Shown in pieces: positions 13,206 to 60,020 of a DNA stretch of 64,000 bases; within the stretch, counting starts at the first letter, position 1; each line of letters begins with the position of its first letter. This DNA comes from Podospora anserina (Eukaryota), in contig CM030338.1 of assembly GCA_017654855.1 (NCBI GenBank), forward strand, positions 1,922,001 through 1,986,000. Reading direction: 5' to 3'. Below the pieces are notes generated by a model, which was not told where the DNA came from, did no database searches, and saw only the letters and a list, made by a program, of their open reading frames with translations. The translations under genes were made by a program, and so were the position numbers.

Positions 13206-13931
13206 GGGCCGAGGCCGCATTTATACTCGGGTGGTCATGCTATTAGGAAGGCAGGTAGGAGGAAGTAGTTTGGGTAGGAAGGGGAGGTGTTGTGTGTCGG
13301 CAACGAGCAAGAAGGAGGATTTTTGGGTTCAGTTCTTTCTTCTCAGTAATATCATGTGCCATGATGATAATGAGTGGGAGGGGGGGGGAGGAAATGATAT
13401 TGGGTTTTTTGTTTCTTCCTCATTCGTATCTTTTATATAGCGTCAAGCGGAGGTAGTAGCAGCAGCATAGATAATCTCACGAGATACCCATATTGTTTTT
13501 TGTTCCAGCATCGGTGAGTGACTATGATTGATGGTTGAGTGATATGAATCAGTTCAAGGATCAGGTGCTCCATGGATTTGGTCAGGGCACCCCGCTAAGA
13601 AGGCACATCACACCCCGCTAGCGGCTTATCGATAACCTTAATTTGAGTGCATGTCCCCACTTTTATACGTCGCGCTGCCTTGTGGTGGTGCGCAAATGGT
13701 AGTCACTGCACTTCTATGGCGCAACTTGGCTTGCTCTTTGAACCTTGACTTTTCGACTTTTCGACTTTTGCAACAACAACAACAACAAAGAGCAACCCAA
13801 CTCAGCGAAGGATTTTTTTTTACTCCGTTGTGTGATGCGCTACCATCTTGCTCCACTCGATTTTTTTTTCCATTACGGGGCTTATTGGGCTGCTTGATTG
13901 ATTGATTGATTTGATAAACGACGACACGACG

Positions 13932-15368
13932 ATGGAGTCGCGCAAAGGTATGCATGCGATAACCCAACCCGACGCGTTAGGGGGAGGGTGGGGGGGAGGG
14001 TATCAAGCTGATGATGATGGGAAATAATAGACGAAGAAGCGACAATAAAGGTGGCTTCGACGAACAAGAAGTCCATGACGCCGTTGCGGGGGGGGAAAGG
14101 CGGAGGGGGGGTGGATGGGAAGATTAAGCTGAAGAAGCCCGGGCCGAGGTTCATCAAGCCGGGGAGTTGGAAGGAGGGGGGGGTTGTGGAGGGTTAGTAT
14201 CCCTTTTTCGCTCCTTTCGTGCGTTTGGGTGGTGTTGCTGATGGTGTTGGGAGCGACAACAGATGATAAGAAGAAGACAAAAGAAACCACCACCGCCGCC
14301 GCCGCCGCGTCGTCCCCCAGCCCCGTGGTCAACCAGCTTGACGAGTCCTCCCGCGAGACGTTTTCTACCGGCCGACCGCTTGATGATATACCCGAGCTTC
14401 AGTCTTGCAAGCACTGCAAGCAGGGGGTTACGAGGATTGCGGCCAAGGAGCATATTGCGCGGTGTTTGAAGATTAAGAAGGAGAAGGCGCAAAGGAAGAA
14501 GGAGGCTAGGGAGGCGAGGGAGAGGGCGAAGCAGCAGGAGGAGGCGAGGAAGATTGAGGGGGAGAACGGGGTTGGTGGGGATGATAGTGATGATGATGAT
14601 GGGGAGGGGGGGAAAGTTGGGGGTGGTGGTGGTGGTGGTGGTGGGACGGCGGGGAAGACGGCGAAGAGGGTTGCCGGGAAGAAGACGGAGGTTGGGGGGA
14701 AGAAGAGGAAGGCTGATGGGGAGATGGGGGGGAAGACGAAGAAAAAGAAGGAGGAGCCCAAGGGGAAGGTGGCTAAGCCGAAGGGGCCGGTGGATGTGGA
14801 GAGGCAGTGTGGTGTTACGCTTGCTAATGGGCTGCCTTGCGCGAGGAGTTTGACTTGTAAGAGTCATAGTATGAGCGCGAAGAGGGCGGTGCCGGGGAGG
14901 AGCTTGCCGTATGACATGTTGTTGTTGGCGTATCAGAAGAAGAATCAGGCCAAGCAGCAGAAGGCGGCGATTGATGCGAATGCGCCTTTGGAGGATGAGG
15001 ATGATGTGAATGCAGCGGCGGTGGACAGTGATGAGGAGACGGCCGCGGTGATGGCTGCGCTGGCTCATTGGAATCCGCAGCCGGTGGTGCCGCAGCCGGT
15101 GTTTACGCCGATTAAGAGGCAGTATCAGCTTTCGAGACTGCATGAGCAGTTGCAGACGGCCACGAATGGTGGGCGGGTCAATATCTTCAAGGTCAGCGGC
15201 TTCGGCGCCCAGAGGCTTCCGGATGGGCATCCGGGCCTGTTTGATGCCGAGGATGCCCCGGGGGAGCCTGACATCATCATGGGCGGTACCGACTTTCAAC
15301 GACGCTCGTCGAGTTTCAGTCTTGCTGGACCACCGCAACGGCGGCCGTCGGTGACAGGTCGGGCTTAG
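13932..15368 (+). CDS. SGF73: SAGA deubiquitination-module subunit Sgf73 (ataxin-7/SCA7 domain); exons 13932-13947, 14031-14192, 14263-15368 (427 aa)
   Basis: N-terminal zinc finger CKHC..H..C and SCA7 domain [40 protein letters not shown]. Introns 13948-14030 and 14193-14262 keep the frame. Ends at TAG 15366-15368. Confidence 0.92.
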
Positions 15369-16850
15369 AAAGCTCCGCCTGGTATTGCATCGTCGCCTCC
15401 ACCCCAGTTACCAAGAAACCAGTCAGCGTCTCTCCCTCCCCAGCGACGAGCTAGCCACCCGCTTACAGAAACAGGGTCGAATACTGGCACGATCCCGGGG
15501 AGACAGCAGCAGCAGCAACCGGAACCGGAACCGCAACCGCGATCACAACAGGCATACCCAACACCGGTTCTAAAGTCGGAATCTATACCGAACCTCAACC
15601 CACCTCGAGCGAGACCATCGCTGTCTCTGAAAGTGCCGAAGTCTCGGCCAAATACACCCAACTTACCTTCTGTCCCATCTCCCCCCGAACAAGAGATGGG
15701 GGTCTTGGTGTCGCGGCCAGGGGAGGCTAGACCTAGGCAGCAGGGATTGCCAACACCGGTTATGCCTTCTCGACCGTCTCCCCTTGAGCAACCTGAGCAG
15801 TCTGAGCAACCTGAGCAACCAGAGCAACCTGAGCTACCTGAGCTCCCTGAGCAACCCGAGCAACCCGAGCAAGAGGACCCGCTCGTTGCTCAAGAACGGG
15901 CCATTATACTAGGAAGGCCCGCACAACCGGCTACGTCGTCACCCGCGATGCAGTGGGTGCATGTCCCGGTGGCAAGTAGTCCACAGACGCCTAACCCTCC
16001 TCCTACTCCGCGTCTTGGATCGGAGGCGGGTTCACGCCGGGGATCGATAACAACACAAGGTTCTTCTCCAGTGTTGCCCATGGCTGAACCCCCGGCCAGA
16101 CCTCAAAAGATTGACACCTTACAAGTGCCCCCGCAACGAAATCTTCTCCAACAGCAGCAGAAACAGCGGCGAAGCTCTCTTTCATCCCACTTACCTTCGA
16201 GTCCAGTAGTGCCGTCTCAGGCAGTTCCGATGGCGCCTCCTGAGCTGAGCCCGGAGACAGTTCCGGCATCACCCATCGCACGGCCTGCTTCACGGGCACG
16301 ACCCACACATATCCAATTACCGCCACAGCAAGTACCCGCAAACTGGGCAGGAGTGCCCCCTCATCTTCGGCTTCCAAGCCAGGTCTTGCCATCGCAACTG
16401 AACACACAGTTTGCACCACGCCGCTTCTCTCAATCACACATCGACCCATCCACTAGCCACGCAGCCCATTATCGACTTGCCCAGTTTCGGGCGATGCAGC
16501 AACAAGCCGGGTTTGCTCATCAACTAGAGGCTCAGGCAGCTGGTTTTGCAATGGCAGGGCCAGCCCACCCTATTCCTATGATAAGGCGGGCATCAGATGC
16601 TCAGCCGCCGGTGTCGCCGGTGTCGAGGACGATGTCGATGCCGTTAGCGATGCCGGGCTTGTCTCCGTCACAGGTGGAGGCGAGGTCGAGGCAGCTGGTG
16701 CATGGCGACTTTGTGGGAGGAAACACGGGGGTCGAGTTTATGATGCAGCAGACGCAGGGGTTTGCCGGGTACCCAGGTCACCAGCAGCATTATCAGCAAG
16801 AACAACTATTTTTACCACATCAACAGAATCCATTTCAGGGCCAGCAGTAG
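15369..16850 (+). CDS. 493-codon in-frame open extension directly after the Sgf73 TAG; candidate readthrough/edited C-terminal extension, alternatively a separate gene from ATG 15696
   Basis: No stop in the Sgf73 frame from 15369 to 16847. The encoded sequence is P/Q/S-rich, with PEQ repeats that vary at synonymous positions and repeated RRxS motifs. Confidence 0.65.
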   Translation, partial: KAPPGIASSPPPQLPRNQSASLPPQRRASHPLTETGSNTGTIPGRQQQQQPEPEPQPRSQQAYPTPVLKSESIPNLNPPRARPSLSLKVPKSRPNTPNLPSVPSPPEQEMGVLVSRPGEARPRQQGLPTPVMPSRPSPLEQPEQSEQPEQPEQPELPELPEQPEQPEQEDPLVAQERAIILGRPAQPATSSPAMQWVHVPVASSPQTPNPPPTPRLGSEAGSRRGSITTQGSSPVLPMAEPPARPQKIDTLQVPPQRNLLQQQQKQRRSSLSSHLPSSPVVPSQAVPMAPPELSPETVPASPIARPASRARPTHIQLPPQQVPANWAGVPPHLRLPSQVLPSQLNTQFAPRRFSQSHIDPSTSHAAHYRLAQFRAMQQQAGFAHQLEAQAAGFAMAGPAHPIPMIRRASDAQPPVSPVSRTMSMPLAMPGLSPSQVEARSRQLVHGDFVGGNTGVEFMMQQTQGFAGYPGHQQHYQQEQLFLPHQQNPFQGQQ

Positions 16851-17688
16851 GAGGAGCTGGACTATGTGATGGGTGCTGGGGGGGTTGAGTCTATGATGCA
16901 CGGGTTTGTTGTGTACCCTGATCAAGAAGATTCTCGATACCCGCCTCATCGGCGAAACTTATATCATGGCCAGGAATAGGAATACCTGGCTTAGCAGACA
17001 TATCATTTTCGGTGCTTTGCCACGAGGAGGAGTGGCTTTTCGATGTTATATACCCCTTTGCTTTCCTTTTCTTCTTTTCTCGGGGTGATTGTCGTTATCT
17101 CAACATTGCTACTATTATATCCATGTTTTTCGGTCGGCGTTTTTTTATACATTTTTCCTACGAAGGGTTCCAGGACAGCAATCAATGGGGATGGATATTT
17201 TTCTCGGGGTCAGAGAGGGGGGAAGCGAAACGGCGTTTTGGCTTTGATTGTTTACCGTCCTTTCTTTTGCTGGATTTCTGTTTTGTTTTTTTTTGTTTTT
17301 ACTTCAATTTATTAGTTTTGGGCAAAAAGGCTGGGCCAGCTCTGGATTTGACGCAAGGAATTGATGGTTGCTTGGCTTTGAGTCGTGCTGGATTACCCTA
17401 TAGAAGGGGGTTTGTTTCTTGGGGGAAGTGTTTAATCAGTTGTTTTATTAGAGGAAATGGGGGGGTGTACACTATAGGGTTTGTCATTGCAGGGTGAGAA
17501 AGCAGGAATTGATATTTTTGACTGTTTGTGCTTGTGGTGTTGAAAGTGAAGGTGTGTGTGTGTGGTGGTTTGACGAGATGTGAGGGGTGATGAAGGGGGT
17601 GGAGGGAGGTTAAGGGTGAGTGGAGGTGGTGGTTGGTGGGTGTTAAATGGTGGGAGACTGGGGGTGGGGGACATGAAGATTTGAAAGG

Positions 17689-22209: not shown

Positions 22210-23420
22210 CTACACGGTAAAAGTTACAGTGTCCTTTTTGACCGTGTTGGCTCCTCCCGCAGAAAAGCCAGTACCTTCTCTGCGTAGCTCGACGAGGCCG
22301 GGACGTACTTTTTCTTTCTCTTTGCCCTCCTTCTCTTTCTTGCTGGGTTTGGACTCTGTCAGGTTAGCTTCACAGACATAACACAAGACCGGTTCTGATG
22401 ACTTGGAGGAGGAAGGCTTCATGAACTGGTCGACGCAGCTCTTGCAAAGGACGTGGCCGCATGGCTTTGCGAGAGTGGCTCTGGATGAGTTGGTCAGGCC
22501 CTTTTTACAGGCGGGACATATTCTTGTTGTCTTTTTGGTGGAGGAGTCGGTTTCTTCGGTGAAGTGGACTGTTACGAGAGTGTGGAGGGAGTAATAGTGG
22601 GGGTTGTCTTGTGAGCTCGAGGGACAAGTTGGTTGGGTTTTGGTCTTCCTCTTGACTTCGTGGAGGGTGTTGTTTTTGTTGGAGGAGGGCGTTACGAATG
22701 GGGACCAGAAGGAGGGCAGTGTTGGTTTTGCGGCCTGATTTGATGTTAGCTATTTATCCAGTTGAAACATATGCCTTGAAGGTGGCCGTACCTTTTCACT
22801 GTCAATCGCCTTTCTTGCCTTGGCTCTTTCCTCGGATGCAATACGTGCTAATTCGTCCTCGTCAAGGGCAAACTTGCGTTTCTCGCCCGTTTTCGCAGTA
22901 GGATCAGGTGTCCCGTTTAATTCCGATGGTGTTGCCTCAGGTGGCGGTTTTTCCATTGGTGTTGATGTTGACGTTGACGACTTCTTCCCATCGGCTCGAG
23001 CAGCAGGCTTGAGACTCAGCCCGGCCTGTGTCAACTCAAACTCCCGAATTGCCCTCGCCTCGGCCTCGGCATCGGCACGCGCCTGCTCCTCCAGAGCCTC
23101 CTTGTCTTCCTGTTCACGGGCCTTTTCATTGCGTTTGATTTCTTTCTTTTGGGCGAGGATGTTGCTCAGGGCGCATTCGCGGCAGAATAAGTCGCCGTTG
23201 GTGCATGCGACTGGATCGATGGCGGGCTCTAGACATAGCCAGCAGGAGGCAAACGGGAGGAAGGAGTCGCGGCCGAGACGGGCGGTGGAATCACCCCAGG
23301 CCGCGCGAGCCATGGCCCGCTCGTGGGAGGTGAAGATTGGGCGGGTGGTGTTTCTTTTGCCTGGAGGGTTAGCTTGCATGGCTGAATCTCAAATAAAATG
23401 TATGACTTACTGTGTGCCAT
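22210..23420 (-). CDS. NOSIP: NOSIP-like RING/U-box protein; exons 23420-23411, 23360-22792, 22734-22210
   Basis: N-terminus [58 protein letters not shown], a C-terminal RING ([17 protein letters not shown]), and [10 protein letters not shown]. Introns 23410-23361 and 22791-22735. Confidence 0.88.
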
Positions 23421-54836: not shown

Positions 54837-56165
54837 TGTGATGTAGATGTGAACAAACGAGAAAATTGATGATGCTGTGCTATCTCCTGAAACAAAGTCC
54901 AAAAATGGGGGAAGCTGGGCTGTAAAAGTTGACTGCGTTGGCGATGCTTGATGATGATTGAGAGAATAGAGGAAGAAAGAGAAGAATACAAGACTGCAAA
55001 CTCTGAGGAGACATTTTATAGACACTCCGTCGTTGCCGACCCAAACCGGGGTTGACGCAGTTTGGCGATGACAATGTCGTTGAGGGAAGGAGTGATGTTC
55101 ATGTCGTGGAAACAATAACATGAGGGAGTGTTGACGAAGGAAGGAGGTCACGTTCGAATGCTCCGATGGCAAGACAAGTCCGAGATATTCAAGCAACATA
55201 TGGAAGGAAGGCATCTACGCGCCTGCCCAGCAGCATCTGATATCGGCTGATCGCTCACAGTTCGGTCCCGCCATTGCTTCGGTTCAAATCGAGTCATCCC
55301 AGCGGCTCGCTTGCCTTCCAAGCACATCTGGAAGGCATGATGCATTTCAGCTGTGGTTGTCTGCGTGTTGGGTCTCTACTTTTTGGAAGAAACGAGGGAG
55401 AGATCGACTGAGAAACAACACAGCACCACAAATCATGATGTTTCAAGCAGGAGTGTCAGAAACGCAATATGAAGCTATTCCGAGCATGTGGGTCAGGGGC
55501 AAATCAACAAATGCTGGCTGTAACCAGGCAACAACTGGCTGTTAGATCACACATTTGCTCTCAGCAACCTCAATTGATGTCTTCCACCCGCAATCTGGAA
55601 CGATTGGTAAGCTGGGTGAGCATGGCAGCACTTGCATCCAAAATGAGAAGGCCTCGCAGCTGCCGGCGCCGTTGTGGTGTTGCTGTGGCTGTTGTGACTG
55701 CTGTGTCACAAGCAAAGCCAAGGAAAACCCAGCACAAGACAGAAGCTCGAAGCACATGATTTGTGGGCCACAGCATGCGCGGTCTTAGCGCCATCCCCAC
55801 AATCTTTTGTTCAGCCAACCACAGCGAAAAACGGCTGCAATTGAGAAACTGGGTCTTCTGCAAACACTGTCCAGACGTCATCACCAATCCCGTCTGCAAC
55901 AGTAGAGAGTTGGAGACACCGCACCATTCAGATCATTTTTTACCACGACGATCAGCGATAAGCTCTCCCCCAGTCCGCTAAGGAACCAGCTTCGATTGGC
56001 ACGACAAAAAGGAAAGTCAGAGGGAGGAATAAGCAACAAACGATACCCTCTCCCGTCAATCACCACAATCCATAGCTGTTTTCGGATTGGACGCTTGATT
56101 GGAAAACACGGCCGAGACCTCGTGTCTCATCACAGCGCCCACCACTCAGGTGAAAAGACAACAAA

Positions 56166-57970
56166 ATGGCGGACACGACGGCGCCCATCGAGACAACGCC
56201 TCTCTTATCAAACAGTTCATCCACCTCCTCTGTCGAGCCCCCATCATCCCCCGAGTCTGCCACCCGCCCTCCAAAACCACAGCGCAATGTCACCTTCAAT
56301 CCAAACCCTGTCTCCAAGACGATCGAGCCCGAGCAGCAATACCGCACCCGGATAAGAACAGCAGGCCATCACCAACACCACCAACATCAACCGCCCTTAT
56401 CGCCCTCCAGCCCCTCGGCCATCAGCACCGGCGGGCTCGGCGGTGGCCCGCCTATGTTGTCCGCCCTAAACAATAAACTCCGCCGGCGCAATAGTCATGG
56501 GGGCGGAGGACCCAGCGGTGTACTTCCCGTGGCGGGCGCACCAGGACATCACCTACCCAAGATTGGCCCTCAACGTACCACGAAGAACGCTCAGAAGCTC
56601 AAGTTGCTGCCGACCCCGGAGTTGGAAGAAGATGGAGCGGATGAGGAAAGTGGCAGGGAGGTGTACTCGCAGTACACTCGCATCAAAGACCCAACTGCCC
56701 GCAGAGATGCCGCCCGTCTCGGCAAGGCCGACCGCCAGACACTGCCCAGGGTCACAGCCTACTGCACGGCGAACAGATACCAGATGGATGGGCTTATGAG
56801 GTTCCTCAAAGGGAAGGGCAAAGGGCGCGGCGCAAACCCGAAGCTGATCGACGAGTGCATCTACTCGCCATACAGCTATAGCTCCAAACAAGTCGAGCTC
56901 TCCCGGCAGGAACAAATAATCCAAGTCCACTCCACCCCTGAACGACGACACTCCACTGGCGAAGTTCCCGGAGCAGACGGCGAGGGCTTCCATCAGCAAA
57001 ATCTGATAGACCTCAGAAACGAGGCCGCAGAAGTGTATGCTTCCGAACAATACGGTAACGGTCCCCACCAAAGCGTCGACGACCTACAGCAACTGGGTGA
57101 AAGCGTGGTGGCAACAGAAGGTGGTGACCGTCTCCAACCAGTCGACTTTGACATCACCGTCCACACCCCAGAGGTCTTCTTCTTCAACTATGGTGTGGTG
57201 GTAATATGGGGCATGTCAGCAAGTCAGGAGCAGAGGTTCCTAAAGGAGATCACCAAATTCGAGCTAGAGAAGCTTGGCCCGGACGACGTGGAAACAGAAA
57301 AGTTTAACTTTTACTACACGCACGAGTATCAGCCGCGGATATACAACGATTTTATCACGCTGAGAGACAAGAGCAATTACATGACAAAGCTGGCCATCTC
57401 GCATGCCCTAGCCCAAAGTGTCAAGGTATTTACCTCCTCCCCTTTCCCCCTTCCACCCACTAACCGAAAGAAATAGACCTCCCTCTTTGAAGAACTCATC
57501 GCCTCCACAATCGAAGACTGCAAAGACATACCCTCCCAGCTCGCCCTTACTGGCAAGATTGACCTTTCTCGTAGACAGATCAACATGCAGATTGGCGAGT
57601 TGTTTATTTTGCGGATTGGTGTGCACCTGAATGGGTCGGTGCTGGACACCCCGGAGCTGTTCTGGGTCGAGCCGCAGCTGGAGCCGGTGTATCAGGCGGT
57701 GAGGAGTTATCTAGAGATGGACCAGAGGGTGGGGTTGCTGACGGAGAGGTTGGATGTGATTGCGGATTTGCTGGCGGTGCTGAAGGATCAGTTGAGTCAT
57801 GGGCACGGGGAGAAGCTGGAGTGGATTGGTGAGTTTTCATTCCCTGATATGAAGAACGAGACTGGATATTTTTGCTGACTGACTGGAAAATAGTTATTGT
57901 GTTGATCGCGGCGGAGATTGTGGTGGCGTTGGTGAATATCATTGTGGATTTGTATGTGGGTATTGATTAA
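56166..57970 (+). CDS. RMD1: Rmd1/Sif2 (DUF155) family protein; exons 56166-57425, 57477-57828, 57894-57970
   Basis: Motifs LPRVTAYCTA, EVFFFNYGVVVIWG, PRIYNDFITL, KLAISHALAQSVK, GSVLDTPELFW and LEWIVIVLIAAEI with a C-terminal TM segment. Confidence 0.92.
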
Positions 57971-58832: not shown

Positions 58833-60020
58833 CTAATCATCCTCCGGATTAGGCTGCGTCTCCTGATCAGTATCGTACTCCCCCATCTCCACATCCCCTT
58901 GGTCATCCTTTTGCTCCTCCTCCGTAGCATTTTCCGTACCATTCTCTTTCCCCTTCTCCTCCGCCTCCTCGCTCTCCTTCTGCCTCTTCGCCTCAGCAGC
59001 AGCAGCAGCATCATCATACTCCCCCCTCTCCTTCTCATACTGAGCCATATTCTCCCCCGCCCTCGTCTCAAACTCCCCACGTTGCGTCTCGCTCAGATCT
59101 TTCCACCCCCGAGCAAGCTCGTCATCGTCCACCTCCCGCCTTGACTCCTCCTGTTCGGCCTTATCGTCAGTAGCAACATCAGCAGAAGCAGCCGTGTTCC
59201 TCTCATTGCAATAAAGCTCAAACGCATTCCCCGGCTTCTTAGGCGGCTCCTGATGATGCACCCCGTTCGACCCCCCCCTATTCGCCAATGAAAAAGCATC
59301 ACTCCCACTCGGCGAGTGACTCGCACCCTCAGGATTCTGGCTAATAAACTGGCTCGCCGTCAAAGACGACGGCCCAACCCCATTCCCACCAGCCTGACTA
59401 CCCCCCGCCTGGCTCCCACTCCCATCAACAGGCAAAATGCTCGCCTTTCTATGGCCTCGCTTCAGTCTCAGCGGCTTCTCCTTGGGCTGTTTATCCAAAC
59501 GCGAAGGAGTCAGTCGATCATCTCTCTCATTTTGTGACGGGTTGTTGGAAAGAGCGGCGGCGTTCAACAGTAGTCTTCTTGGCGATAAAGATGATGGTGA
59601 TGAACTTACAGTCGGTGGTGGGCTCGGGCTGCCGTCAGAGTCCTCCACGTTTGTGCTCGTCCGCTTGGCGAGTTGCTCGAACAGAAAGACGCGCTCGAGG
59701 CGGAGCTTCTCGATCTGGCGCTTCAGGCGGTTGATGCGGACTCTAGAGGCGTCGTTGGCCTTTTCGACTTCGTTGGTGCGCTGGCGGAGCTTGTTGCATT
59801 TTCTGCGGTAGGCCTCCTCTACCGTTGGGGGGAGGGCTGGGGGGATTGCGCTTGCTGGGGAGAGGGCGAAGGTTTGGTCAGTGAGGTCGTCCATTTTTTG
59901 AGCGGGGGAATCAATGGATGGTGATGATGGTGATGATGATGAGGAGAAGATGGTTTTTTTGGGGAAAAAAGGTTACGGGGTGGTTAGATTGGGAGTTTGA
60001 CGTAACGTACCTGGCGCCAT
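58833..60020 (-). CDS. NHP10: HMG-box protein, INO80 subunit Nhp10-like; exons 60020-60011, 59854(or 59836)-59610, 59486-58833
   Basis: Coiled coil VEEAYRRKCNKLRQR..LRLERVFLFEQL, linker PPPT|PKEKPLR, HMG box PPKKPGNAFELYC..LARGWKDLSE, acidic tail. Introns start GTACGT (60010) and GTAAGT (59609). Confidence 0.8.

Follow-up and report, generated by a model that had tools for sequence, protein, structure and literature searches.

The Sgf73 gene and the frame behind its stop codon

The window analysed was a stretch of 64,000 nucleotides of Podospora anserina (assembly GCA_017654855.1, contig CM030338.1, positions 1,922,001 to 1,986,000 of the forward strand), in which positions are counted from the first letter. 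On its forward strand it contained PODANS_7_7050, the gene for Sgf73, a subunit of the SAGA complex with an SCA7 domain (by Pfam match and by the source names of the orthologues). The Sgf73 coding sequence closed at a TAG (15366-15368), behind which the same frame remained open for 493 codons. From the comparison across relatives of the TAG, the open frame, a protein motif, the insertions and deletions (indels) and the conserved blocks of Podosporaceae, this extension is very probably translated as a continuation of Sgf73, through the stop codon.

Sgf73 was encoded in three exons, with coding joints at 13932-13947, 14031-14192 and 14263-15365, giving a protein of 427 aa, or of 921 aa if the TAG is read as Trp. 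The RNA evidence consisted of assembled contigs of four runs (X1, X3, X4 and X7) from four studies, minor variants being dropped from such contigs; that these runs contain RNA follows from the presence of spliced joints. Exon 1 (13932-13947; ATG...AAAG) ended at a splice joint present in all four runs and opened with MESRKDEE, as do the orthologue models, and intron 1 (13948-14030, 83 nt, GTATGC..AG) was removed in X1, X3, X4 and X7. Exon 2 (14031-14192) was delimited by the sequence, the orthologue models and the RNA contigs. Intron 2 (14193-14262, 70 nt, GTTAGT..AG) was removed in X3 and X4 and retained in X1, whose contig read gapless from 14029 to 14575, with a frame then open into exon 3 (open reading frame, ORF, 14133-15368). 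Exon 3 (14263-15365) ran to the canonical C-terminus ...RRPSVTGRA and contained the SCA7 zinc-binding domain (14748-14948; PF08313, E 1.2e-29), which corresponds to residues 163-229 of protein P0001. For P0001, which is without the first 59 residues, SCA7 was the sole Pfam match at E up to 0.1.

The exon-3 frame closed at GCT TAG AAA and the extension (15369-16847) ended at a second TAG (16848-16850), which confirmed the long open frame described in an earlier, sequence-only reading and agreed with the length of about 920 aa proposed there for a long isoform. Judged by how often stops occurred in the five remaining frames (0.0325 per codon), a run of 493 open codons had a probability of about 8e-8; behind the TAG, frame +1 closed at 67 codons and frame +2 at 27. 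The first in-frame ATG of the extension was codon 110 (nucleotide 15696). The extension was identical (491/491) to that of the PODANS_7_7050 model from P. anserina S mat+, and it was not hidden, as the sequence-only reading had it, being included in public Podospora models by way of a predicted intron.

RNA coverage continued through the stop codon and past 16850, which had been proposed as a check. In three runs a single gapless contig, with no differences from the window, ran from about 14730 or 14808 to 17272, and in X7 overlapping contigs covered the same span, which begins in the SCA7 region, includes the TAG and ends at 17272. The 3' untranslated region (16851-17272) was delimited by the contigs of X1, X3, X4 and X7, which ended at 17272, adjoining a skipped repeat. 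The TAG was kept in the contigs, with A at 15367, and 15313-15372 was unspliced (4/4 runs). A sequencing error at 15367 had been named as an objection; since the majority contig carried A in all four runs, each of a different study, and ...VTGRA was also the end of four different Logan ORF variants from the species complex, an assembly error is excluded for the TAG.

A minor alternative intron of 53 nt (15422-15474, GT..AG) lay 3' of the TAG. Its joint was present in X7 (depth 23.8, vs 65.4 for the unspliced contig) and absent from the other three runs. In the unedited mRNA it is an intron of the 3' untranslated region; in a recoded mRNA its removal would shift the frame, and the tail would end at 15728-15730.

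Two further observations were made on the 5' side of the gene. In the 5' leader, all four runs had G and not C at 13826, and one T fewer in the T-run at 13861; these differences are either differences between strain and assembly or homopolymer assembly errors. In X7, record 14 (depth 671; window part 14262-14559) joined 853 letters not found in the window to exon 3, precisely where that exon starts. A 17-letter piece of these letters was searched for in the window without a match, and the join may reflect a chimeric assembly, a repeat effect or an upstream exon used alternatively.

Conservation of the stop codon and of the extension

The homologues of the tail fell in five clusters, all of SCA7 proteins (5/5; 824-901 aa, 66-97% identity). 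Within Podosporaceae, the extension was 66-76% identical between genera, with invariant blocks, and the conserved blocks began directly at the stop codon and included sequence 5' of the first ATG. The extension was predicted to be disordered almost throughout (predicted local distance difference test, pLDDT, <50) and was rich in Pro, Gln and Ser. No Pfam family matched it, and the best score in the ESM Atlas was 0.80, below lead level. A search for standalone homologues of 271-863 aa returned only two known fused proteins.

The sequence-only reading had pointed to RRxS sites in the extension. They were enriched in the window (5 observed vs 0.3 expected from composition), and four were invariant in the 8 Podosporaceae sequences (RRGS, 16035-16046; RRSS, 16167-16178; RRFS, 16419-16430; RRAS, 16584-16595, all on the forward strand), a fifth (RRAS, 15444-15455) varying among them. 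Other lineages had 0-2 each, and enrichment in RRxS was rejected as a general feature of the extension.

A search of 1.84 billion representatives yielded many Sgf73 relatives that terminated at query position 366-368. Of 21 fetched, 7 ended in a C-terminal ...S[VI]xx[RH][AGT] (e.g. RRPSISSRA, RRPSVASRA and RRTSVASRG). Judged by sequence comparison, the TAG at 15366-15368 is the ancestral canonical stop and not a premature one, this motif being the C-terminus of Sgf73 in other Sordariomycetes too; its passage would be a stop-loss and not the correction of a premature stop.

A degenerate DNA pattern for an 11-residue stretch retrieved 14 metagenomic loci. Among the 13 of them with a TAG stop, two pairs were duplicates (L003/L004 and L002/L012), leaving 11 distinct sequences besides the window. 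A separate metagenome scan with alignment A1 gave 587 pattern matches, of which 0 were confirmed. In 13 of the 14 loci the Sgf73 frame ended in ...RRPS[VA][TS][GS]RA, and in every one of these the stop was TAG (13/13), while the Arg and Ala codons adjoining it varied synonymously. The fourteenth and more distant locus (L005) had a TGA stop with 4 codons behind it.

The frame behind the TAG was long in all 13 loci. It closed after 177, 182, 890, 681, 191, 188, 346 and 182 codons in eight loci and was open to the contig end, for more than 456, 116, 262, 246 and 227 codons, in the other five; against the 116-890 codons of frame 0, frames +1 and +2 closed after 3-142. The first in-frame Met ranged from codon 7 to codon 217 or was absent, and no ATG was kept. 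The TAG, the hairpin described below and the open frame were kept well beyond Podospora; a comparison of the TAG and of the extension in related species had been proposed as a check.

A motif, MAAAVAIAG[AP]HN[LR][RK]P, occurred 153-842 codons past the stop in L001, L002, L003, L008, L009, L011 and L012, always in frame 0, frames 1 and 2 having none, and it was also carried by model P0182 of Chaetomium tenue. The window had a diverged copy, AMAGPAHPIPM (16548-16580). In L001 the motif lay behind a second in-frame TAG, 177 codons past the Sgf73 stop, and a coding-like GC content (0.83/0.47/0.70) persisted there; two recoded TAGs or an intron may account for this.

Frameshifts in relatives had been named as a finding that would speak against a coding extension. 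In the first 500 nt of the L002 and L009 extensions the indels were of 3, 3 and 3 nt, all multiples of three, and beyond the extension no alignment was obtained. Together with the homologue clusters and the conserved blocks from the stop codon onward, these frame-keeping indels bore out the claim that the extension is coding. The ratio of nonsynonymous to synonymous substitution (dN/dS) was 0.52 in the L002/L009 extension (synonymous divergence, dS, 0.32), vs 0.02 in the core, and 0.78 in the L006/L007 extension over 116 codons. Values for distant pairs (0.15-0.43) were set aside for bias from the protein-guided alignment. Outside Podosporaceae the frame is kept under weak constraint on residues.

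Probable passage of the stop codon

The RNA of the window folded around the TAG (15337-15397, 61 nt) with -27.7 kcal/mol (z -2.74). Its core was a hairpin (15361-15375), supported by folding and by comparison, with the stem 15361-15364 (GGGC) : 15372-15375 (GCUC) and the loop 15365-15371 (U-U-A-G-A-A-A). The four core stem pairs were kept in 12, 12, 12 and 11 of 12 sequences; one of them varied (AU 7, GU 3, GC 1, UA 1). Over a seven-pair helix, 86.9% of cells could pair, vs 27-37% with slid 3' partners. In single folds the proposed target A, A15367, was in the hairpin loop in 10/12 sequences. The loop was of 7 nt, N-U-A-G-R-N-N, with UAG at loop positions 2-4 and the target A third. By the authors' comparison this loop resembles the tRNA anticodon loop, with its U33-A34 geometry. 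A15367 was preceded by U and followed by G, with purines at +2 and +3, and the base following the TAG was a purine (G or A) in 12/12 sequences.

Adenosine-to-inosine (A-to-I) editing of fungal mRNA is reported to prefer U at -1 (85.7%), either A or G at +1, then G at +2 and purines at +3 and +4 (PMC4817773, PMC11156358); in Fusarium graminearum it favours stable hairpin loops, and UAG is often edited (PMC4817773; PMC11156358). The site in the window fits these preferences (PMC4817773), both in the bases around A15367, as the sequence-only reading had stated, and in the position of the A in a stable hairpin loop. Sexual-stage mRNA editing has been reported for Sordaria macrospora and N. crassa, both of the Sordariales (PMC5381528, PMC11156358).

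On the proposed mechanism, the unedited mRNA would give the 427-aa Sgf73 that ends at the ancestral ...RRPSVTGRA. During sexual development an A-to-I editing system of the Tad2/Tad3 type would deaminate A15367; the UAG would then read as UGG (Trp), and 493 further codons would be translated into the 921-aa isoform, with AW-KAPPGIASSPPPQLPR as the Trp junction peptide. Short motifs of the disordered tail (the AIAGxHNxRP-like motif, and RRxS in Podosporaceae) could add regulatory input or binding partners to Sgf73 as the anchor of the SAGA deubiquitinase. The timing in the sexual stage is presumed, as is any effect on SAGA, including the rewiring of deubiquitination suggested in the sequence-only reading.

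Stop-loss editing of UAG to UGG is considered the best mechanism for passing the stop codon, with a probability of about 0.6. Relatives that are saturated at synonymous positions share the TAG, the hairpin, a frame of 116-890 codons and a motif in that frame, which is hard to explain otherwise than by regular recoding of the stop. Several results weigh against this reading. All four runs carried A at 15367 in their contigs, from which minor variants are dropped and whose sample stage is unspecified, which shows only that editing was not the majority form in those samples. A Trp at the junction was found in none of the five tail-homologue clusters and in none of 37 database proteins. The extension changed fast outside Podosporaceae, with dN/dS of 0.5-0.8 in the two closest pairs, and BLASTP of the window extension against the metagenomic extensions gave nothing at E 1e-3, the short AIAGxHNxRP-type motif being the sole link between them. 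Covariation in the hairpin was modest, with changes on both sides at one pair and 15/500 shuffles reaching the observed score; the 5' arm overlaps conserved codons, and the minimum-energy fold placed the target A in a stem in 2/12 sequences. The passages covered by the literature search gave no demonstration of A-to-I mRNA editing in Podospora, the one Podospora paper among them, a bioRxiv preprint, listing ADAT genes only; and a letter of 2026 argues that editing of the stop-loss kind is in general not adaptive (PMC13684035). The search found nothing on editing of Sgf73 or Pa_7_7050, supplementary site tables, which may list the Neurospora or Sordaria orthologue, being outside its scope, and nothing relevant, among the papers listed, on Sgf73 in Neurospora or in perithecia.

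Three other explanations were weighed, each of them unlikely. Leaky stop contexts are C at +4, UGA-CUA and UAG-CAR-YYA, and a purine after the stop favours termination. In programmed readthrough a near-cognate tRNA would occasionally decode the UAG at a rate tuned by the hairpin and the context, giving a low level of the long isoform at all stages. All the evidence for translation through the stop fits this too, the unedited A in the RNA contigs of all four runs agrees with it, and fungi are known to make readthrough isoforms (PMC4817773 mentions them). But the base after the stop was a purine in 12/12 sequences, none of the leaky contexts nor C at +4 was present, and the stop lay within a hairpin loop and not 5' of a structure. 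Readthrough, moreover, does not need the retention of TAG seen in 13/13 loci, whereas under editing it is expected, since UAA can be edited to UGA only. Of about the same low probability is a minor isoform in which a short intron, 15313-15372 or another pair of sites, removes the stop and joins the tail. The 60-nt intron (GTTTCA..AAAG, with GT and AG in the window) is that of the public models: all six named models of the Podospora complex pass from RRSS into PPGIASS (junction RRSS-T-PPGIASS), as do those of Cercophora samala and Triangularia verruculosa, and the minor intron at 15422-15474 is evidence that alternative splicing occurs nearby. However, no joint 15313/15372 was present in the contigs of the four runs, although the minor 53-nt joint surfaced in X7, and no stop-removing intron, such as the one at 15192-15368 that had been suggested, appeared in the majority RNA. 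A 5' splice site has G at +5 in its consensus, and GTTTCA lacks it. Among 12 sequences the predicted sites had GT in 3 and AG in 2, and 6 were without a consensus-like in-frame GT..AG pair spanning the stop; the intron would also remove the conserved C-terminal motif.

The junctions of the models, too, varied between species. Those of T. setosa and Apiosordaria backusii retained a 13-residue stretch and jumped at another place, and the long models of Neurospora, Copromyces, Chaetomium, Immersiella and Podospora aff. communis had mutually inconsistent junctions, which is what gene predictors produce in dodging a stop. Least probable of the three is that the tail is separate from Sgf73, as a downstream gene, the relic of one or a chance-open 3' untranslated region. 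The tail has no Pfam family, is predicted to be disordered and evolves fast, and a contig over two genes is no proof of a single transcript. Against this, conservation ran from the stop codon onward with no conserved start, which bore out the earlier judgement that a separate gene is unlikely; the relation to the Sgf73 frame held at every locus, with closed tails of 177-890 codons. The small chance of such an open frame, the search for standalone homologues, the indels in multiples of three and the loss of alignment past the tail all point the same way.

Stop-loss editing at this site can be set beside known systems. DBF2 undergoes stop-loss A-to-I editing in F. graminearum and other Sordariomycetes at a TAG-biased stop in a hairpin, and it is like Sgf73 in its canonical UAG in a hairpin, the retention of TAG in the lineage, a disordered and poorly conserved tail and a proposed sexual-stage switch (PMC13123824). 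Its tail, however, is of 24 aa and is a destabilising element (PMC13123824), whereas the Sgf73 tail, which has conserved motifs, would add 493 aa (177-890 in relatives) and thereby more than double the length of the protein; editing of Sgf73 is at present a candidate only. The PUK1-like and premature-stop-correction genes of F. graminearum and Neurospora crassa resemble it in having an in-frame UAG in a long conserved ORF, a false intron in models and a full-length product through UAG>UGG (PMC4817773, PMC11156358, PMC5381528), but the stop of Sgf73 is the ancestral C-terminus, and its unedited product is complete and not truncated and pseudogene-like. Fungal readthrough isoforms likewise give a short and a C-terminally extended protein from a single mRNA (cited in PMC4817773); unlike them, Sgf73 has neither the known motifs nor C at +4, and its stop lies in the kind of hairpin loop that editing favours.

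With the Sgf73/ATXN7 family the protein shares the SCA7 domain (PF08313), and orthologues are named 'SAGA complex subunit Sgf73'. Members of this family also have an N-terminal zinc finger by which they bind the deubiquitinase module, and they associate with SAGA. Yeast Sgf73 and human ATXN7 have a long C-terminal region encoded without an intervening stop, whereas the extension found here had no detectable similarity to any family.

The locus is thus a well-supported candidate for deeply conserved stop-loss recoding in a chromatin regulator, of a known class and unusual in the size and conservation of the extension. A more tentative reading, somewhat less than evenly likely, is that the Sgf73 UAG is an ancient selected switch, an anticodon-loop mimic kept in several families of Sordariales, by which the sexual phase would make a protein 2-3 times larger that gives SAGA stage-specific partner or kinase input. 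Hundreds of fungal stop-loss editing sites have been catalogued, function has been demonstrated for DBF2 alone, and adaptiveness is disputed (PMC13123824 vs PMC13684035); the Sgf73 locus offers an independent test of this dispute, based on conservation. If the selected switch is real, one gene would encode two proteins in a clear case of stop-loss editing that is adaptive. A long isoform would tie RNA editing to the deubiquitination and acetylation of histones in fruiting-body development. For annotation, the recurrent artefact is a model that bridges the stop, with junctions varying from one species to the next, as in Podospora, Triangularia, Cercophora, Apiosordaria, Chaetomium and Neurospora; the protein described by such a model is probably never produced in that form.

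Other stop codons and fused frames

In Hypocreales, 'Sgf73' models of 770-880 aa (P0170-P0175, P0177, P0178, P0180 and P0186; many Trichoderma, Metarhizium and Tolypocladium) had an SGNH-hydrolase after SCA7. These fusions may be merged neighbour genes or another annotation of the frame behind the Sgf73 stop.

The sequence-only reading had attributed the same pattern as in Sgf73 to an Nhp10 gene of the window. That gene is probably the ORF similar to INO80 subunit F (58836-59972, reverse strand; Pfam INO80F, E 4e-15), which ended at GAT TAG AGT (TAG 58833-58835). The likeness was weak, only 48 in-frame codons following the TAG, and the ORF is at best a short stop-loss candidate, not comparable with Sgf73.

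Two long ORFs in the same frame with a single TAG between them were also present in a NOSIP/RING-finger gene (22213-23388, reverse strand) and in a DUF155 (RMND1) gene (56154-57875, forward strand); in both, ordinary introns around the stop are suspected.

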